From: a virus
Lineage: Duplodnaviria > Heunggongvirae > Uroviricota > Caudoviricetes
Direction: 5' to 3' (one strand)
Length of the DNA: 24,668 nucleotides
Virus record (IMG/VR): IMGVR_UViG_2563366840_000014
Span: 1-24,668 of that record
The translations under genes were made by a program, and so were the position numbers. Each line of letters opens with the position of its first letter. The stretch's first letter is position 1. The notes below the pieces were generated by a model. The model was not told where the DNA came from. It saw nothing but the letters and a program-made list of their open reading frames with translations, and did no database searches. Positions 1 to 7,500 of this stretch are shown piece after piece.

Positions 1-708
1 ATGTGGGTCAATAAGTATATTGACGATTGCACTGATGAGGATTTAAACGATCGTGACTTTATTGCATCAGTTGTTGACCGGGCTATTTTTCATTTCGCGA
101 TTAATAGTATATGTAATCTTGGGGATAATAAAGATGCAATGCCCATTGAACAATGTACTTTTGATGTAGAAACTAAGAATGACCTTCCCTCCACGGTTCA
201 GCTATTTTATGAGGAATCTAAGGATAATGAACCTTTAGCGAATATACATTTTCAAGCAATAGGTTCTGGTTTTTTAACGTTTGTTAATGCCTGCCAGGAA
301 CATGATGACAACAGCTTAAAATTATTTGCTTCGCTGTTAATTTCACTTTCATATTCTAGTGCCTACGCAGATTTATCAGAAACAGTGTATATTAATGAAA
401 ATAATGAGAGCTACCTGAAAGCTCAGTTTGAAAAATTATCTCAACGTGATATGAAGAAGTACCTGGGAGAGATGAAGCGTCTGGCTGATGGGGGAGAAAT
501 GAATTTTGATGGCTATCTGGATAAGATGTCACATCTGGTGAATGAAGGAACGCTCGATCCTGATATTTTAAGCAAAATGCGAGATGCTGCACCACAATTA
601 ATTAGCTTCGCGAAGTCGTTTGACCCAACCTCAAAGGAAGAGATTAAAATACTTACAGACACTTCTAAATTAATTTATGATTTGTTCGGGGTTAAATCGG
701 AGAAATAA
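1..708 (+). CDS. yjbM: Hypothetical protein, host flank (235 aa); matches the length and position of the E. coli gene immediately upstream of dusA
   Basis: Full ORF with ATG at 1 and stop at 706-708; AT-rich; followed by a hairpin terminator; lies upstream of a dusA promoter/5' fragment as yjbM does in E. coli K-12 (synteny and length recalled, sequence identity not verified). Confidence 0.55.
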   Translation: MWVNKYIDDCTDEDLNDRDFIASVVDRAIFHFAINSICNLGDNKDAMPIEQCTFDVETKNDLPSTVQLFYEESKDNEPLANIHFQAIGSGFLTFVNACQEHDDNSLKLFASLLISLSYSSAYADLSETVYINENNESYLKAQFEKLSQRDMKKYLGEMKRLADGGEMNFDGYLDKMSHLVNEGTLDPDILSKMRDAAPQLISFAKSFDPTSKEEIKILTDTSKLIYDLFGVKSEK

Positions 709-749
709 TATGTGAAGTTCTTCGATAGTATGGAAGGCATTATATAAAA

Positions 750-778
750 GGACCCAATATTTATTGGGTTCTTTTTTC
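750..778 (+). terminator. Rho-independent terminator after the 1-708 ORF
   Basis: Stem ACCCAAT / ATTGGGT with a TTT loop, followed by a run of six T. Confidence 0.6.
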
Positions 779-1070
779 TCTATCAATGCTATTAGCAGGG
801 AGATATATCACCAGAGTTTAATGTGTGATTTTTTATTTATCGTCGAACCTGGATTGTTTATCATTGGCCTTAACAAAGTTAACGGCTAATAAGATTATTT
901 CCATCACTTCGTGAGAGCTTCATGCCTTGAGAGGATCTCAATTTTCTTTTGCAATGAGACAGGCGCTTCCTGTTGTTATGGTATAGTACCCCGCTATTGA
1001 GCCTCCTGAACAGTGATGCTGAATAACATAACCCCATGATATATCGATAAAATAATCTCTACATTTGAAA

Positions 1071-1193
1071 ATGCACGGTAATTCTGAAATGCAAAAAATC
1101 AACCAAACCAGCGCAATGCCTGAAAAAACTGACGTTCACTGGAGTGGTCGGTTTAGCGTTGCACCAATGCTCGATAGGATGTACCGTTTTTGA
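1071..1193 (+). pseudogene. dusA: Displaced native 5' end of dusA (tRNA-dihydrouridine synthase A): first 35 codons, then an out-of-context tail and stop
   Basis: Translation MHGNSEMQKINQTSAMPEKTDVHWSGRFSVAPMLD matches the DusA N-terminus as I recall it, then reads RMYRF-stop instead of the conserved WTDRHCRYF; the break is at about 1173-1178. Confidence 0.75.
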
Positions 1194-1283
1194 AAAACAA
1201 ATAGTTATATACTTTGTGGGAGCCTATTGGGAACCCGGCGTTTTCATTTCAAGGTGTAATCCATACGCGGCTTAAGAATGAGA

Positions 1284-1289
1284 TATAAT
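1284..1289 (+). promoter_or_regulatory. Candidate -10 hexamer (TATAAT) for the 1319-1855 cargo gene
   Basis: Perfect TATAAT about 30 nt upstream of the ATG; the -35 element at 17-nt spacing is poor, so this is weak. Confidence 0.3.
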
Positions 1290-1318
1290 GCGACTTTTAG
1301 TGTTCCGCTTGAGAGGCC

Positions 1319-1855
1319 ATGATGCTTACCCTGGACGAGATAGGTCAATCAGTACGTAACAATATCCAGTTGATTATTGATCATGTCGGCTTACCTCTTG
1401 CTGTTGGTCCGCTCAGTGATGATGATTACAAGATTCTGTGTGGTGGCTATGGTGAGCTTGAATGGGACTATGCGTTAAGTACCTATGGCAACTCCAGAGA
1501 AAAGTATGAGTTCTGCATAAAACTTGTTCAGCAAGGTCGGGTTCAGGGAATACCATCAGGAGCAGCAATTTGTGTTTATGGGGTTGAAGAAAACATCTTT
1601 CGTATCCATATGATCGAAAGGTTTTCTAGAGAAGATGAATCTCACCCATTGAAAGGGCGCATGGTTTTACTCACTCTTATGAGTGCTTTTATATTTTGTA
1701 AAGCTGTTGAATGTAAAGTTGTCCACATTGTAGAGCCAGTACCAGAACTGGTGCAGTATTACGAGTCTTTTGGTTTCCGCATGGAACAGTGCGGTTATGT
1801 GATGTCGGCAGTCATTGATGAGCTGCAGGATATCTTTCTTAAATTTGCTCAGTAG
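1319..1855 (+). CDS. Hypothetical cargo protein (178 aa), AT-rich; weak GNAT-like C-terminal motif (YYESFGF)
   Basis: ORF with RBS GAGAGG before the ATG; lower GC than the phage backbone; sits between the att junction and xis; no family recognised with confidence. Confidence 0.6.
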   Translation: MMLTLDEIGQSVRNNIQLIIDHVGLPLAVGPLSDDDYKILCGGYGELEWDYALSTYGNSREKYEFCIKLVQQGRVQGIPSGAAICVYGVEENIFRIHMIERFSREDESHPLKGRMVLLTLMSAFIFCKAVECKVVHIVEPVPELVQYYESFGFRMEQCGYVMSAVIDELQDIFLKFAQ

Positions 1856-2051
1856 GTATAGACGAGAAGGGTCTACAAATTGTAGGATACCCGTCCAGAT
1901 TACCTTAAAGGTACATCTATGGCAGTCGTTTTGTGCTTAAACTACTAAGAAACGATGTCACCAATCGACATGATCGATTGGCATAAGTTAGCGAAACAAG
2001 CTAGCTTTAAAGAAAGGGTTAGAGACGCCTTTACTGTCTCGGGAGTTTTCT

Positions 2052-2225
2052 ATGAAAGATCAAAAAGCAACCAAGCCACAGGTTAAGTTCGACACAATGA
2101 AAGCATTCGCAGGTATGGGTGCTGCTGTTGAAGTTCTGATGAAGGCTGCTCCTAATGCGTTCACTCACGCTACTGTCTCTGGTAAAGAGCAGCAGGGTAA
2201 GCTTCGTCGTCGCAAAGCAGCATGA
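2052..2225 (+). CDS. Small hypothetical protein (57 aa), Lys/Ala-rich
   Basis: ATG at 2052 preceded by GGGAG; TGA at 2223-2225; immediately followed by a hairpin terminator; below the ORF-track length cutoff. Confidence 0.4.
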   Translation: MKDQKATKPQVKFDTMKAFAGMGAAVEVLMKAAPNAFTHATVSGKEQQGKLRRRKAA

Positions 2226-2244
2226 TCATAGCTGGTGCTTTTTG

Positions 2245-2272
2245 AAAACCCGCCTTCAGGCGGGTTTTTTCT
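2245..2272. terminator. Bidirectional rho-independent terminator between the convergent small ORF and xis
   Basis: AAAA, then stem CCCGCC / GGCGGG with loop TTCA, then TTTTTT; A-run on one side and T-run on the other. Confidence 0.7.
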
Positions 2273-2554
2273 TTAGTGATGTTCTTTGTCCTTCTGTTTG
2301 ACTGTTCTGACCTGTTCCCACTCGATACGTCCTTCTTCTCGCCTTTTGTCTATGTATTCCGCAAGATCCTGAATATTGATGCAACGTTTTGCTTTTTGTG
2401 ATGTGCCGATGCGATATGTTGGAACGGGCAACTTACAAGCGTTTGCTTTTGCTTCTGCCGTGGCTGGACTCATACCAAAGTACTTTTGGCTAACTGCTGA
2501 GAGTTCAATGTTTGGGGTATTGAATTCAGCCATCAGTAAAAACAAGGTGTTCAT
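2273..2554 (-). CDS. Excisionase-like DNA-binding protein (PrtN/pyocin-activator family, 93 aa)
   Basis: Start at internal Met (MNTLFLLMAEF...) with GGAGA RBS; small basic protein with ...IQDLAEYIDKRR... typical of this family; placement near the prophage end mirrors torI in KplE1. Confidence 0.7.
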   Translation of the reverse strand: MNTLFLLMAEFNTPNIELSAVSQKYFGMSPATAEAKANACKLPVPTYRIGTSQKAKRCINIQDLAEYIDKRREEGRIEWEQVRTVKQKDKEHH

Positions 2555-2590
2555 AATTTTCTCCATCAAAACCGGCTGCACCCGGGAAAA

Positions 2591-3166
2591 TTATAATTCT
2601 GTGCTGGTGGCAGGAATTAATTTCTGCCAGATAGCGGAAACATATTTTGCCTGATGACGGGCATCGGCCAGGGCGTTGTGCCGTTCGCCATCGAAAGGCA
2701 TGTCCATTTTGGGGTCGAATCCGATGGAACGCCCAAGCGTAACGATCGTGCGTACATCGTGGTCATTCCAGTATGCCCACGGGCAGATTTGTCCTGCTCG
2801 CTCATAAGCTCCACGTAAAATTACGTTGTCGAAGGTGGCTCCGTTACCCCAGACTTTTAAATATTTCGTATTGTCTGCGTGCCGGTTAATGAAATGATTT
2901 AGTTCTGAGAGAGCATCGCTGATCGACAAAGTATCATCAATACAGATTGCAGCTCGTGCTTCAGAGCTTTGTTTCAACCACCACAGGATGGTATCGCCGT
3001 CAGGTGTAGCTCCTTGCCCCATAGCACTTCCCAGGCTAACAACCGTATAGAATTCTTGTCCGATGTCTCCGGTTTCTGGAGTGAAGAACACCGCGCCAAT
3101 GGAAACGATCGGTGCATCCTTATTTTTCCCCATCGTCTCAAGGTCGATCATTAAGTTGTTCATCAC
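2591..3166 (-). CDS. DnaQ-like (DEDD) 3'-5' exonuclease
   Basis: N-terminal MIDLETMG... motif and conserved acidic residues; ATGA overlap with the upstream gene. Confidence 0.75.
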   Translation of the reverse strand: MMNNLMIDLETMGKNKDAPIVSIGAVFFTPETGDIGQEFYTVVSLGSAMGQGATPDGDTILWWLKQSSEARAAICIDDTLSISDALSELNHFINRHADNTKYLKVWGNGATFDNVILRGAYERAGQICPWAYWNDHDVRTIVTLGRSIGFDPKMDMPFDGERHNALADARHQAKYVSAIWQKLIPATSTEL

Positions 3167-4122
3167 TTCACCTCCTGCGGCGGTTCCGGTAGCGGCATCC
3201 AGTGGGTTACATTGCGGCTCTGTGTTTCGAAGAGCTCCTCACCATTGCGGACGACATCAAAAAACTCACCGTCCCGATATTGCGCATAAAGAACGAATGC
3301 GCCATCACATAAAATAATTACGTGCTGACCATCATCTGGCATTCGCTCACTACAGCTTATCCAACCATCCGGAGTTACCGGAGAGTTGCCGGGTTCTTTA
3401 ATGTGCAAGCGAGGCTCACCATCTTTTGGCTCAGGCCACTGGCGCTCCATGTTGATCTTCAATTTATCTTCCATAGCAGCGGTAATTTCAGCATCGCTGA
3501 TGCCAGCACGGCGCTGTGCATCCCACAACAGAAACTGCATATCAGCCCACTCGCTAAGATCGTCTGGTTCGGCTGCGGCTTCCAGTGCCTCTTTTGAGAG
3601 ATGTTTCAGCGGGCCAACTGGACCAACACAGCCAAACGTCTTATCTGACCATTCAGCATGGCGCTGCCGGATTAAATTGCGCAATTGAAGCGATGATCCG
3701 TTCTCCTCTGACAACTCTTCATGATTACTTGCAGGTTCGACACCATGAAGCATGGCGGCGCGGCAGGCATTCCAGCCTCTCACCTCTGCAATAGCGGCAA
3801 CAGCATCGACCGCGTACATTTTAAGAGGGTTGGGCATTGGTTTTTCTTCAGGTACTACTGGCACTGGAGGGGCGGCGTATACTTCAATTGTCCCATTATC
3901 AATAGGCCATTCCCCATCCTTGATGTAGTCACTTGTGCCATCGACCTGCTGTTCTGCAATGTGGAAAGCACCTATTGGTTTTGCTTCCAGTGATGCCAGT
4001 GCAATTTTTAATGCGGTAAGCATGTTGTTTTGATCTTCATCGAGTCCGAACGGTATTTCATCCCGTGCTGACTCAATGATGGTAATCGTGTTCTGTAACC
4101 ATTCTTTGGTAAGAGTATTCAT
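3163..4122 (-). CDS. DUF550 (MazG-like dNTP pyrophosphohydrolase) plus DUF551 domain protein
   Basis: 319-aa ORF tightly packed in the operon; domain assignment from recalled phage homologues. Confidence 0.6.
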   Translation of the reverse strand: MNTLTKEWLQNTITIIESARDEIPFGLDEDQNNMLTALKIALASLEAKPIGAFHIAEQQVDGTSDYIKDGEWPIDNGTIEVYAAPPVPVVPEEKPMPNPLKMYAVDAVAAIAEVRGWNACRAAMLHGVEPASNHEELSEENGSSLQLRNLIRQRHAEWSDKTFGCVGPVGPLKHLSKEALEAAAEPDDLSEWADMQFLLWDAQRRAGISDAEITAAMEDKLKINMERQWPEPKDGEPRLHIKEPGNSPVTPDGWISCSERMPDDGQHVIILCDGAFVLYAQYRDGEFFDVVRNGEELFETQSRNVTHWMPLPEPPQEVK

Positions 4123-4124
4123 AA

Positions 4125-4316
4125 CTATTTCACTTTAATCTCAATATTTCGCAGCTTTATGTCTACTGGTAGGTCTGACTTTCCTGTTAACGCTAATGCG
4201 AGATTTTCAGGAGTAATGAGAGCAGTTATTGTTTTCCCTATTGCCAGACGAATAATCATTCGTATCTCGCGATCGTCACATGCTCCCGGTCGAACAATTG
4301 ATATTTGTCCGATCAT
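4125..4316 (-). CDS. Small hypothetical protein (63 aa)
   Basis: Start at internal Met (MIGQISIVRPG...) one nt after the upstream stop; stop 3 nt before the next gene. Confidence 0.4.
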   Translation of the reverse strand: MIGQISIVRPGACDDREIRMIIRLAIGKTITALITPENLALALTGKSDLPVDIKLRNIEIKVK

Positions 4317-4317
4317 C

Positions 4318-4629
4318 TCACTCTCCTTTAGTGCGCAAATGGTTTTTCCAGCGGTTTTGCGCCGCGCTGCCCTTATCTCGGACTCCCTCTCTGGCAATTC
4401 CAGAAAATGAAAACAACACCACACGACGATTGCTAACTCTCAACCACTGGCTGGGATAGCAAAGTCTGTATACACGGGAAATAAGCATCTTTGCTTTACG
4501 GTTTTTCATCTTACTGCGTACCCTTTCTCTCGTCTGTTTTGCGCCACGGTGTGGTTTATATGAGTCCCAGTCTCCCCACGTTGCTTTCTCTGCCGCCTCA
4601 CGCAGTGCCTGATGGTCAATTTTGCTCAC
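4318..4629 (-). CDS. Hypothetical protein (103 aa), occupies the position of yfdT in KplE1
   Basis: GTG start with strong AAGGAGG RBS; GTGA overlap with the upstream gene stop; C-terminal half is low-complexity so the 3' part is uncertain. Confidence 0.5.
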   Translation of the reverse strand: MSKIDHQALREAAEKATWGDWDSYKPHRGAKQTRERVRSKMKNRKAKMLISRVYRLCYPSQWLRVSNRRVVLFSFSGIAREGVRDKGSAAQNRWKNHLRTKGE

Positions 4630-5156
4630 TGGTTGCCTCCTTTTCGAAGCTGGGCGGCGAACAAACGTACACCAGACGCTTCACTGCGTAGAAACTTAAC
4701 GGCATAATCAAAACCACCTCGTTCTGCGTCGTCTGCTCCGTTGTCGAGGTTATCTGCGTACATCTCTACCCCCTGCGCCCGTACTTCAGCCAGGAAAGCA
4801 TCGGTGGTTGGGGTTTCGCTGTGGTGTAGGGCATCGTTGATAATCATTGCAGCAACTCCGGCCTGCCCTGCATCCGTTACCGACACATGCTCAAGAGTTA
4901 CAGCCATTGCATGTTTCAGCCCCGCATTCTCCGCCGCCAGCGCCGAAAACTTCTCGTGTGCCAACTTAACAGCCGCATCAGCCTGCTTAATTGACTCAAT
5001 CGCTTTCTGTTGGTCTTCGGCCAGCGCCGCGCACTTGGCCTCAGCTTCAGCAAATTTACGCACCAGGTACTCAGCGTTTGTTTCGTTCACTTTCAGATCT
5101 CGCGGTACACATTTCCCGCGAAGAAACCCTTCCATTTCGAAAACATTCATGCGCAT
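4626..5156 (-). CDS. Ead/Ea22-like protein
   Basis: 176-aa ORF with an Ala/Glu-rich coiled-coil-like middle and a C-terminus resembling lambda Ea22-like proteins (recalled). Confidence 0.55.
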   Translation of the reverse strand: MRMNVFEMEGFLRGKCVPRDLKVNETNAEYLVRKFAEAEAKCAALAEDQQKAIESIKQADAAVKLAHEKFSALAAENAGLKHAMAVTLEHVSVTDAGQAGVAAMIINDALHHSETPTTDAFLAEVRAQGVEMYADNLDNGADDAERGGFDYAVKFLRSEASGVRLFAAQLRKGGNQ

Positions 5157-5683
5157 TTGCGTAACCCCGATAACTCGTTAAAACGTTCCATAAACATCCC
5201 GTAGGCATGGCCTGGTGACAGTGGAATAACTTTGAACATCTCTGTCGCCGGGATACCTTCCAGTACAGGCCAGAAAGAACCATCATCAAGCCCGAGATCG
5301 CGGCGTTCGGTTGCCAGCATAATGAGATCGGCATATTTCACTGGCGTGCTCATAACAGGAGGTAACCCGTATTTCTCACGGATTACGGCGTCTATTTTTT
5401 CTTCCATCCGTTTATAGTCAGGAAGAAGGCGTTTCAGTGGTGCGGGGATGTCCTGACAATATGCTTCTGTTGCATCATGCATTAACGCTTCAAAAGCAAA
5501 TTCCTGCGGTACCAGCTGGCTGCAAAGCACCGCATGTTGGGCGACGCTGTAGAAGTGTGAAAGATGTCCTGCAAAGCGACAGATATTTGAAAGGGAAACC
5601 GCGATATCGTTAATAACGATGTCGTCTTTATTTATCTTGTCATAATAAAAATGCTTCCCGGAAAAAGTTTTAATAAATGACAT
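5147..5683 (-). CDS. yfdR: HD-domain 5'-deoxynucleotidase (YfdR family, 178 aa)
   Basis: Start at internal Met with GGAG RBS; ...LMHDATEAY... HD-type motifs; length equals E. coli YfdR. Confidence 0.75.
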   Translation of the reverse strand: MSFIKTFSGKHFYYDKINKDDIVINDIAVSLSNICRFAGHLSHFYSVAQHAVLCSQLVPQEFAFEALMHDATEAYCQDIPAPLKRLLPDYKRMEEKIDAVIREKYGLPPVMSTPVKYADLIMLATERRDLGLDDGSFWPVLEGIPATEMFKVIPLSPGHAYGMFMERFNELSGLRKCA

Positions 5684-5776
5684 TTTGTTCTCCACGTATA
5701 TGCACTGCACCGCGCTGAATTCTGGTAAAAGGAAGCCCTCACCATTCGGTGATTATTGAGTTAATTACGTTTCCAT

Positions 5777-5798
5777 AAATGCCCCCGCAGGGGCATTT
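5777..5798. other. Perfect 9-bp hairpin in the yfdQ-yfdR intergenic region
   Basis: AAATGCCCC / GGGGCATTT with loop CGCA; no adjacent T-run on either strand. Confidence 0.5.
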
Positions 5799-5810
5799 GC
5801 AGTAATGAAA

Positions 5811-6635
5811 TCAGGCGGTGAAAGTACCAATAAAGGTTTCTACTTTGCTGTCTTTGAATTTCTCAACAAGCAGATCACGAAATTCGTTAGCCATTTCTTC
5901 CTGCACCGCTTCCAGCTGAATAATGCGCAGAACCAGTACAGGACGATCGCCAGTGATAATGCTGAGGCGTAATTTAAACGGACGTTCTTTCAGACCTTCA
6001 AACGGAACGCATTTAAATTCAAATGCCACTGGCATAATGTCTTTGGTCTTCGCTTCGACAGACTCCATCAGGGAGCGTTTTCCGCTGAAGTCATTGTCTT
6101 CAAAATCAGCGGTCTGGTTCGCTTCAATTGTGATTTTACGGATCGCCGCAGCCGCTTTGGTTGCCTGAATGGCGTCACCATTAGCATCAAAGCCCACAAG
6201 GTAGTCGGCCCAGTCTTCAATCCATTCTGCCAGTGACTTCTGGGAGTTACGCTCGCCATTAACAGACAACAGAGCAGAGAACGGTGCTGTCTTTTTCAGT
6301 TTGAGAGTGGCGGTGTTATCTGCGTGACCTGGTTCATCAATAGTACCCAGGTTAAGCACACTGACGGCTCGCATATTATCGGCATCGATAAAGCAGCGGG
6401 TGCCTTCATCTGCAAGATCTTTAGAATAACGGGTAAAGTCATCGATGCTGGCAGTGGAAAGTGCACCACGGAAACGGAAACGATTTAAATTAAATTTTTC
6501 CAGATCATGAATGCGGAAATTCTCAGGCAATGCCACAGCATCGGCACCAATCTTACTGATAATTTCATTAACACCCTGAGCAGAAATAAGGGCATGGATT
6601 TGATTAATTGCGGTTGAGTCTAAGTTCTGAGACAT
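5811..6635 (-). CDS. yfdQ: YfdQ family protein (DUF2303, 274 aa)
   Basis: Full ORF with GAGGA RBS; length and gene order match KplE1 yfdQ. Confidence 0.75.
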
Positions 6636-6700
6636 AATAAGTCCTCACTATATTAAGATATTCAGTGATGAGATAAATAATCAGTTAATTAAGAACGATA

Positions 6701-7063
6701 TTAATGACCTGCTGCGCGGAGTTTTCCGTCAGGTTCACCGGCAAGAGTCAGTAATTGTCCCTGGTCTTCCTGCAGAATAGTCAGGCGACCACCGCGATTG
6801 ACATACATCGGCGTTTCGGTGGTGTCTTCTTCGGAAATTTTCCCGCGGTTAGTCGGGCGAACATATGAGAGTTTGTGTTTGATTTTCACACGGTTCTCAT
6901 CAAATGGTTCGATTTCCAGGTTGAGTGAGACCTTACCTTTGGTTTTCGTGTTCATCACACCGGAAGCGACTTCACTGAGAACTGCGCCGATTTTGGTTTC
7001 AAATACGCCGCCGTCCAGCTCCCCGATAAATTCCTGCACGTTGGTACTGCGTTCGCTAGCCAT
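6701..7063 (-). CDS. yfdP: YfdP-like protein (120 aa)
   Basis: Start at internal Met (MASERSTNVQ...) with GAGGAG RBS; the upstream 106 codons of the listed ORF are GC-rich and Arg/Cys-rich with no RBS. Confidence 0.65.
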   Translation of the reverse strand: MASERSTNVQEFIGELDGGVFETKIGAVLSEVASGVMNTKTKGKVSLNLEIEPFDENRVKIKHKLSYVRPTNRGKISEEDTTETPMYVNRGGRLTILQEDQGQLLTLAGEPDGKLRAAGH

Positions 7064-7111
7064 TTTGCTGCTCCTCATCATATCGACCCTGCAAGGTCGG
7101 TTGGTTTCTCC

Positions 7112-7320
7112 ACAAAACAGAGAAGAACACCTGCGGTGGTAGCCGCCCGGATGGATTGGGTTATGAGCCCGTCGTCCGGTGATGCTCTTCTCTGTTTTGT
7201 AAAAAGAGCGGTACCAGCCGGAAGCAAGTGTACAAACTGGTACCGCGAGGACTACACACAGCATAAAGTTGTGGTGCCGGGTGCCTCCCGGTGCCTGGCG
7301 AAGGTTGCACACCAGGCGGG
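7112..7320. ncRNA. GC-rich cluster of stable hairpins upstream of yfdP (candidate structured RNA or leader)
   Basis: 15-bp perfect stem 7112-7126 / 7186-7200; 10-bp stem 7208-7217 / 7237-7246; shorter stems at 7278-7290 and 7293-7317; overlapping ORFs on both strands look non-coding. Confidence 0.35.
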
Positions 7321-7500
7321 TGGGTATCCACAGAAGGTCGACTGTCAGCCTCAACCTTAACCCGCGTGCGCTGAGCCGCATTCACCACAACGCTAAGGAT
7401 TCTCTCTGGTTGAAAATACTTAGCTGTTATGTGCCTGTCTTTTCACCACTTCAGGCTCGGTGGTATCCTTTTAAGCCCGTATACATAAAAGGAAAATAAA

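Follow-up and report, generated by a model that had tools for sequence, protein, structure and literature searches.

Evidence for a mobile cargo cassette encoding a divergent GNAT-fold protein and a small basic partner in dusA-integrated lambdoid prophages

The whole stretch of virus DNA analysed here, referred to as the window (IMG/VR record IMGVR_UViG_2563366840_000014, 24,668 nucleotides (nt)), carries an mEp460-like lambdoid prophage of Escherichia coli with a two-gene cassette between the dusA attachment (att) junction and the excisionase gene xis. Gene 1 (1322..1855, plus strand) encodes an acidic protein of 177 amino acids (aa) with an isoelectric point (pI) of 4.8, gene 2 (2052..2225, plus strand) a basic protein of 57 aa with a pI of 10.5. 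Very probably, the two genes constitute a mobile cargo cassette of a divergent GNAT-fold enzyme and its obligate small basic partner. They correspond to gp23 and gp24 of phage mEp460 and are annotated as hypothetical proteins in RefSeq (WP_000956557 and WP_000654815) and in the phage record. A preliminary description of the window had listed two open reading frames (ORFs) between the att junction and xis, and both turned out to be real genes: their products matched the PHROG families phrog_4350 (2e-103) and phrog_2741 (8e-36), which have no assigned function, and ratios of nonsynonymous to synonymous divergence (dN/dS) against relatives were 0.03-0.33 for both genes, for gene 2 in its GNAT-linked state 0.03-0.3. 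The two protein families are recorded just as unnamed PHROGs.

The evidence for an obligate pair comes from the comparison of loci. Where the preliminary description had seen two neighbouring genes, we observed rather one conserved pair moving as a unit of 950 bp. All 39 of 39 fetched GNAT-bearing loci, about 20 of them distinct, had a homologue of the 57-aa gene on the same strand 90-200 nt further downstream, and the pairing persisted down to 40 % identity of the large and 38 % identity of the small protein. In phage Eeyore (PP925821.1), the GNAT protein has 42 % identity and the partner is an unannotated 53-aa ORF (locus 4795-4956); the deposited annotation shows several ORFs of 30-38 aa across this interval. 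All seven remote relatives of the GNAT protein (E 1e-43 to 5e-5, approximately 20-30 % identity) were followed directly by an ORF of 50-92 aa, in one case with a gene overlap of 4 nt. The nearer of these downstream ORFs were alignable to the 57-aa protein, the farthest were not. Adjacent, co-directional small genes with strict co-inheritance, the genomic signature of toxin-antitoxin (TA) systems of type II, were thus present in the 39 loci, in Eeyore and in the seven remote relatives. The two products carry opposite charges in 18 of 18 pairs: pI 4.3-4.9 and a net charge of -8 to -15 for the enzyme, pI 9.6-10.8 and +6 to +9 for the partner. This complementarity is in keeping with a direct electrostatic interaction of the two products and speaks against a tRNA substrate.

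The limits of the mobile unit were obtained by sequence comparison. The DNA common to cassettes at other phage sites extends in the window from approximately 1302/1320 to 2270, that is from the ribosome-binding site of gene 1 through the end of a terminator. This intrinsic terminator hairpin (2244..2269, plus strand) separates the convergent 57-aa and excisionase genes, lies at a distance of three bases from the latter's stop codon, and forms the right edge of the cassette, with homology to the cassettes of other sites stopping at 2270. It had been described as bidirectional; the terminator scan called it on the plus strand only, while the T-tract of the minus strand reads TTTTC, so that bidirectionality is plausible but weaker. 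A GC content lower than that of the phage backbone had likewise been stated, and the values agree: 41.9 % in the large gene, 41.3 % in the spacer, 47.7 % in the small gene and 42.8 % in the whole region, compared to 50.8 % in the remaining prophage of the window and 37.0 % in the host flank.

The cassette was found in the att/xis slot of dusA prophages of E. coli and Salmonella, within a myovirus tail operon in Photorhabdus, and beside integrases of other elements. Citrobacter, Enterobacter, Edwardsiella, Franconibacter and phage Eeyore carry it in the interval from the Q antiterminator to the lysis genes. The Q-to-lysis slot is the stx position in Stx phages. As a discrete unit with its own terminator and atypical composition, variable among close relatives and present at no fewer than four kinds of cargo site, the cassette has the features of a moron. 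In the Q-downstream versions (L010 7020-7211, L021 5301-5492), a 63-aa winged-helix protein (DprA_WH-like, E 9e-5) and an N6/N4 DNA methyltransferase are encoded between the cassette and the lysis genes. A prophage fragment with intact cassette, xis and an exonuclease gene adjoins psiA and hok on the 205-kb plasmid pEND_Eco 18005 of avian pathogenic E. coli (NZ_CP126947.1, 154960-159524). In remote branches and in Photorhabdus and Xenorhabdus chromosomes, the neighbours include an OLD/AriA-like ATPase-nuclease, HEPN-AbiU2, a DpnII-type enzyme, GmrSD and Cas3. One metagenomic island (L049 616-5884) encodes a remote enzyme and a 58-aa partner with a 4-nt overlap, flanked by an OLD/AriA-like ATPase-TOPRIM protein (PADLOC AriA, 4e-37) and by HEPN-AbiU2 with a DpnII/MboI-type enzyme; the remote enzyme and its partner had no PADLOC match themselves.

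At the dusA site of E. coli, the slot has a second allele. Of 5426 complete E. coli genomes, 562 have the 57-aa gene, 358 the GNAT gene, and 208 a Panacea-domain gene together with a gene for 128/139 aa. The GNAT cassette thus occurs in approximately 6.6 % of the complete genomes, including the O157:H7 and O111 lineages of Shiga toxin-producing E. coli. In sister dusA prophages, in phages Lys8385Vzw and SKA5 and in many E. coli, the Panacea pair takes the exact place of window positions 1236-2038, while the 57-aa gene, the terminator and xis remain. In the pair of these sister elements (L003 2986-3974; L041, L042, L053 and L054), the Panacea-domain protein was recognised by Pfam at 2e-19; the putative toxin of this pair has no hydrophobic segment and matched no family. 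Panacea antitoxins with diverse toxins are an experimentally validated family (PMC8832971). In some of the Panacea-carrying sister elements, the terminator is the insertion site of a CoiA-like gene. The cargo status proposed for the segment, to be judged by comparison with dusA prophages lacking it, is borne out, as the large gene is swapped for a Panacea TA pair; the 57-aa gene, however, does not vary at this slot and was kept in every relative examined with any upstream cargo. A role of the 57-aa gene as part of the phage backbone, e.g., as excision cofactor, was rejected because it accompanies the GNAT gene to sites without xis.

The co-occurrence of the two genes is one-way. Approximately 208 E. 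coli genomes have the 57-aa gene without the GNAT gene, and an intact GNAT gene without a downstream small ORF was not seen among the loci examined. This is the asymmetry expected of a TA system, in which the antitoxin can stand alone and the toxin cannot, here resting on few independent events. Three independent inactivations of the GNAT gene left the small gene intact: a pseudogene in Photorhabdus temperata and two IS1203 insertions in the O111:H8 strains 7-16 37A and 08-4455, which differ in position and orientation and have an unchanged 57-aa gene. The orphan copies of the 57-aa gene are intact as well. In five orphan sequences, we counted 8 nonsynonymous and 2 synonymous changes, including V26A, A57V and R54L/C, versus 16 and 32 in GNAT-linked copies (Fisher p = 0.011). 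Selection on the small gene is relaxed without the enzyme, which hints at a loss of constraint on this gene once the enzyme is absent. For the same locus pairs, the synonymous divergence (dS) of the small gene was far below that of the enzyme gene, with 0.08 versus 1.5 in Salmonella and 0.65 versus saturation in Citrobacter. Such a low dS means either that recombination had a breakpoint in the spacer or that the small gene is under an additional constraint at the DNA or RNA level.

The product of gene 1 is a structurally outlying GNAT according to the structure model. The reading frame had been described as a 178-aa ORF at 1319-1855; this ORF exists, with a likelier start at the second ATG in 1322 (MLTL...), giving 177 aa. 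This start is preferred by RefSeq and the family alignment, and the Shine-Dalgarno sequence GAGAGG at 1310-1315 fits it better than the alternative start at 1319. The preliminary description recognised no family for the protein, and rightly so: models of Pfam, NCBIfam and PADLOC gave no match at E <= 1, and a Pfam GNAT domain was not detected in ten scanned relatives (E <= 0.01). The family is small. A word-indexed search of 5.8 billion proteins yielded 48 clusters, all of approximately 178 aa and all from Enterobacterales. When 1.84 billion representatives were searched exhaustively with a profile, just 83 clusters were obtained. AlphaFold2 predicted the structure from an alignment of 36 sequences with a mean local confidence (pLDDT) of 89.6 and a global score (pTM) of 0.88. 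The model has the GNAT order of strands and helices with an extra helix at either end, a mixed alpha/beta fold of the type b1-a1-a2-b2-b3-b4-a3-b5-a4-b6(-b7). A Foldseek search of the PDB returned 317 matches at E <= 0.001 and the top ones were all GNATs, including RimI and Gcn5, with TM-scores of only 0.5-0.6; the highest (0.59-0.60) belonged to the toxins AtaT, KacT and TacT3. Among the viral structures of BFVD only generic GNATs were found (TM approximately 0.5).

At the sequence level, the affiliation is hardly visible. GNATs ranked first when a broad family profile of 60 sequences was compared to the PDB, with non-significant E values of 0.025-1.6, and matches of a narrow profile to HIV gp41 constructs were judged spurious. 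An hhalign comparison of the family with E. coli RimI aligned the YYESFGF motif alone, at a probability of 1 %. In this stretch, LVQYYESFGF stands against AIALYESLGF, and Y147 falls on the tyrosine of the RimI motif (LYESLGF). Among 60 divergent relatives, all have W48 and at least 90 % have Y147. The weak GNAT-like hunch that the preliminary description had drawn from YYESFGF is thereby supported at the level of the fold, by model topology, Foldseek and tyrosine conservation. The conservation of Tyr147 together with E/D138 would fit catalytic positions. The position of the pyrophosphate-binding loop (motif A, b4-a3) is taken by H108-P-L-K-G112-R-M114 with a single glycine; H, P, L, G and M do not vary in 36 sequences and the wider family reads HPL-x-G-R. 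Judged from the model, the use of acetyl-CoA is plausible.

The product of gene 2, preceded by a GGGAG ribosome-binding site, had no sequence match in Pfam, NCBIfam, PADLOC (E <= 1) or the PDB. AlphaFold predicted with low confidence (pLDDT 61) one helix of residues 15-32 between disordered tails. The family conserves F-D-T, M-G-A-A-V-E/D-x-L-x-K-A-A-P, E-x-Q-G-K with an invariant Lys50, and a C-terminal basic residue followed by A-A; in the window the protein ends with ...RRRKAA. Recognition tags of ClpX are ...LAA in ssrA and ...RRKKAI in MuA, and the ...K/R-A-A terminus is reminiscent of such a ClpX or protease tag.

The spacer of 196 nt between the genes (1856..2051, plus strand) is highly structured. 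It contains elements that are kept across genera: a palindrome, CCAATCGA-N5-TCGATTGG at 1961-1981, a second hairpin at approximately 1985-2007, and the inverted repeat GAGAC-N9-GTCTC at 2022-2040 immediately 5' of GGGAG. The minimum free energy of the plus strand was -57 kcal/mol (z = -3.4), and none of 200 shuffled sequences was equally stable. RNAalifold retained the hairpins in nine versions from Enterobacteriaceae with G-U changes only; compensatory pairs were absent from the nine versions and a match to Rfam was not obtained, hence we make no claim of a conserved RNA element. As far as the sequence indicates, the spacer could act as an operator, as a processing site or in the control of translation. 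As an internal sigma-70 promoter of the small gene, only a weak TTGGCA-N18-TAGCTT was present, below the threshold of the scan.

Regarding the function, our preferred though tentative reading of the pair is a TA-like or defence (abortive infection) moron, in which the micro-protein would neutralise an acidic acetyltransferase. This reading is based on the fact that co-occurrence is one-way, on the loss of constraint in orphan partners, the interchangeable downstream ORFs of the remote relatives, the TA alternative in the slot and the defence-gene neighbours. Under this reading, the pair would probably have a role in prophage stabilisation or phage exclusion. A part in lysogenic conversion or in anti-phage defence is suggested by context only, namely the hot-spot position, again the TA allele of the slot and the defence neighbours of remote relatives. 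In the proposed mechanism, the micro-protein would occupy the acidic substrate groove of the enzyme as inhibitor or pseudo-substrate, and the enzyme would be silent in the lysogen. Loss of the micro-protein, possibly a labile one in view of its basic, protease-tag-like ...K/R-A-A terminus, would set the enzyme free. The freed enzyme might then acetylate a basic cellular or phage protein rather than tRNA, and this acetylation could arrest growth or the infecting phage.

Several observations weigh against this reading. The acetyl-CoA loop is degenerate, with HPLKGRM where Q/R-x-x-G-x-G/A is expected. The small protein lacks a helix-turn-helix or other DNA-binding domain. The order with the enzyme first and the spacer of approximately 180 nt are both unlike known GNAT toxin systems. 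Within Enterobacteriaceae, the small protein has 96 % and the enzyme 69 % identity, the opposite of the usual fast-evolving antitoxin. The selection test depends on the five orphan sequences mentioned, and the three knock-outs are not significant alone, as the enzyme gene has three times the length of the small gene (chance approximately 0.4). The defence-gene neighbours are anecdotal. A search of the literature for reports on toxicity, interaction, phage resistance or another phenotype of the pair found none.

The main rival is an enzyme-substrate pair, which we consider rather unlikely. The GNAT protein would acetylate the 57-aa protein, at its N-terminus or at Lys50 in E-x-Q-G-K, and the modified micro-protein would be the effector, e.g., as a regulator or an exclusion protein that acts on a conserved machine of the host. 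The fold of the enzyme, similar to N-terminal acetyltransferases, and the better conservation of the partner than of the enzyme within Enterobacteriaceae speak for such a relation. It leaves unexplained, however, why the enzyme is never alone and the substrate gene often is, and why remote relatives have non-homologous short ORFs downstream, a pattern typical of interchangeable neutralisers.

Counter-defence is improbable. The GNAT protein would be an anti-immunity enzyme acetylating a host defence protein, and the small gene an associated regulator. The GNAT-type anti-CRISPR protein AcrVA5 acetylates a host defence protein in this way. The enzyme is phage-borne, small and divergent, and its frequent late-operon site right after Q lets one expect expression during lytic growth. 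In the window, however, the cassette is transcribed separately beside att and convergent with the early-left operon, the usual place of prophage-expressed genes; the small protein has no helix-turn-helix; and relatives reside outside phages, in islands of the chromosome where GmrSD, Cas3 and OLD-like genes are the neighbours. Equally doubtful are two unrelated co-travelling morons, a metabolite or antibiotic acetyltransferase for lysogenic conversion and an independent 57-aa gene: the best PDB sequence matches of the family profile were nourseothricin and aminoglycoside acetyltransferases (non-significant E of 0.025 and 0.094), SpeG polyamine acetyltransferases were among the Foldseek matches, and the 57-aa gene persists under different upstream cargo, but the pair was linked in every locus examined, down to approximately 40 % enzyme identity and in at least five unrelated insertion contexts, and selection on the small gene relaxed after enzyme loss.

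The models of PADLOC-DB 2.0 for described or candidate anti-phage systems matched neither protein at E <= 1. A type II TA system of GNAT toxin and ribbon-helix-helix (RHH) antitoxin, such as TacAT, AtaRT, KacAT or ItaRT, was rejected: an RHH/DUF1778 protein is absent, the two genes stand in reverse order, and the enzyme, an acidic protein, has no Pfam acetyltransferase match. In the GNAT-RHH systems the RHH/DUF1778 antitoxin is encoded immediately upstream, whereas here a domain-less 57-aa partner follows downstream after approximately 180 nt. Their toxins need a basic surface for the aminoacyl-tRNA target, in contrast to the enzyme of the 18 pairs with its pI of 4.3-4.9 and net charge of -8 to -15; since the enzyme of the window is acidic (pI 4.8), tRNA is an unlikely substrate. 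To the housekeeping N-terminal acetyltransferases NatD/Naa40, Ard1/Naa10 and RimI, the gene 1 product has only 9-14 % identity, with a degenerate CoA loop, and unlike these enzymes it is phage-borne in a cassette with a dedicated small partner. The classical lambdoid morons (bor, lom, stx position) resemble the cassette in being autonomous, with their own terminator, low GC content, patchy presence and the Q-to-lysis slot, but the cassette combines an enzyme with an obligate micro-protein partner. The Panacea (PanA-PanT) pairs are likewise a small cargo module, in the identical slot (1236-2038) of sister dusA prophages and phages; they consist of unrelated proteins, their antitoxin gene comes first and overlaps the toxin gene, and they are validated (PMC8832971), whereas the cassette is known from sequence alone. 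Specific literature on the two families, on the functions of these mEp460 genes, on defence at the dusA hot spot or on systems of a GNAT and a small protein was not found.

The surroundings of the cassette are those of a lambdoid prophage end. Host chromosome occupies window positions 1-1174, where a DUF2713 (yjbM-like) gene is present with its 3' part and dusA with its initial 86 bases. The truncated dusA frame (1089..1193, plus strand; a partial tRNA-dihydrouridine synthase in RefSeq) has its host part to 1174 and terminates within phage DNA. Genomes with an intact dusA, K-12 among others, match the window only to 1174, which sets the boundary between host and prophage at 1174/1175, in good agreement with the start at 1176 given in the preliminary description; other dusA-integrated prophages match to 1235. 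The arm beside the att junction (1175..1235, no strand) is therefore common to dusA prophages of any cargo and forms the left edge of the variable slot, after which those with Panacea cargo diverge. A perfect TATAAT had been noted upstream of the large gene. This -10-like hexamer is present (1284..1289, plus strand), but an acceptable -35 sequence is missing, the promoter scan made no call there, and it is peculiar to this insertion site and outside the mobile unit.

On the other side of the cassette lies the excisionase gene (2273..2581, minus strand; 2273-2554 in the shorter RefSeq call). Its identification in the preliminary description was correct: the product belongs to the PrtN family (Pfam PF11112, 4e-23) and to phrog_1300, annotated as excisionase, in accordance with the mEp460 annotation. 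Phage mEp460 has 98.5 % identity to the window from approximately 1068 onward. The gene order of the free phage is int on the minus strand, attP with a mimic of the dusA 5' end, gp23, gp24 and the convergent xis. As int and xis flank attP on opposite sides, they come to lie at opposite ends of the prophage, and the junction in the window bears gp23, gp24 and xis. Adjoining attP, the phage has a dusA 5' end of its own (mEp460 locus 4710-7406; window 1068-1235). Further inward, a 319-aa ORF (3163-4122, minus strand) is represented in strain O111:H- 11128 by two DUF551 pseudogene fragments and in mEp460 by a shorter DUF551 gene. Among these prophages, the early-left region is a mosaic.

In its widest form, the TA-like reading would make the pair the founding member of an undescribed TA or abortive-infection family, in which an acidic, aberrant GNAT acetylates basic proteins and is held in check by a protease-labile pseudo-substrate of 50-60 aa, with a 950-bp cassette that spreads in Enterobacterales via defence islands and the cargo slots of prophages. 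We regard this as a speculative and on balance unlikely extension. Should the pair have neither toxicity nor an effect on phage resistance, it would be another conserved moron of unknown role. If the TA or defence function holds true, a new architecture of GNAT toxins would emerge, with the enzyme first, a domain-less micro-protein and probably a protein instead of tRNA as target, and it would account for a pair that is present in hundreds of prophages of pathogenic E. coli and Salmonella and blank in every curated database. The cargo slot of the dusA prophages with its two alleles, GNAT pair or Panacea TA pair, represents a natural experiment on the exchange of modules by phages. The cassette is a well-defined, widespread and easily testable candidate with a real chance of revealing a new TA or defence architecture.

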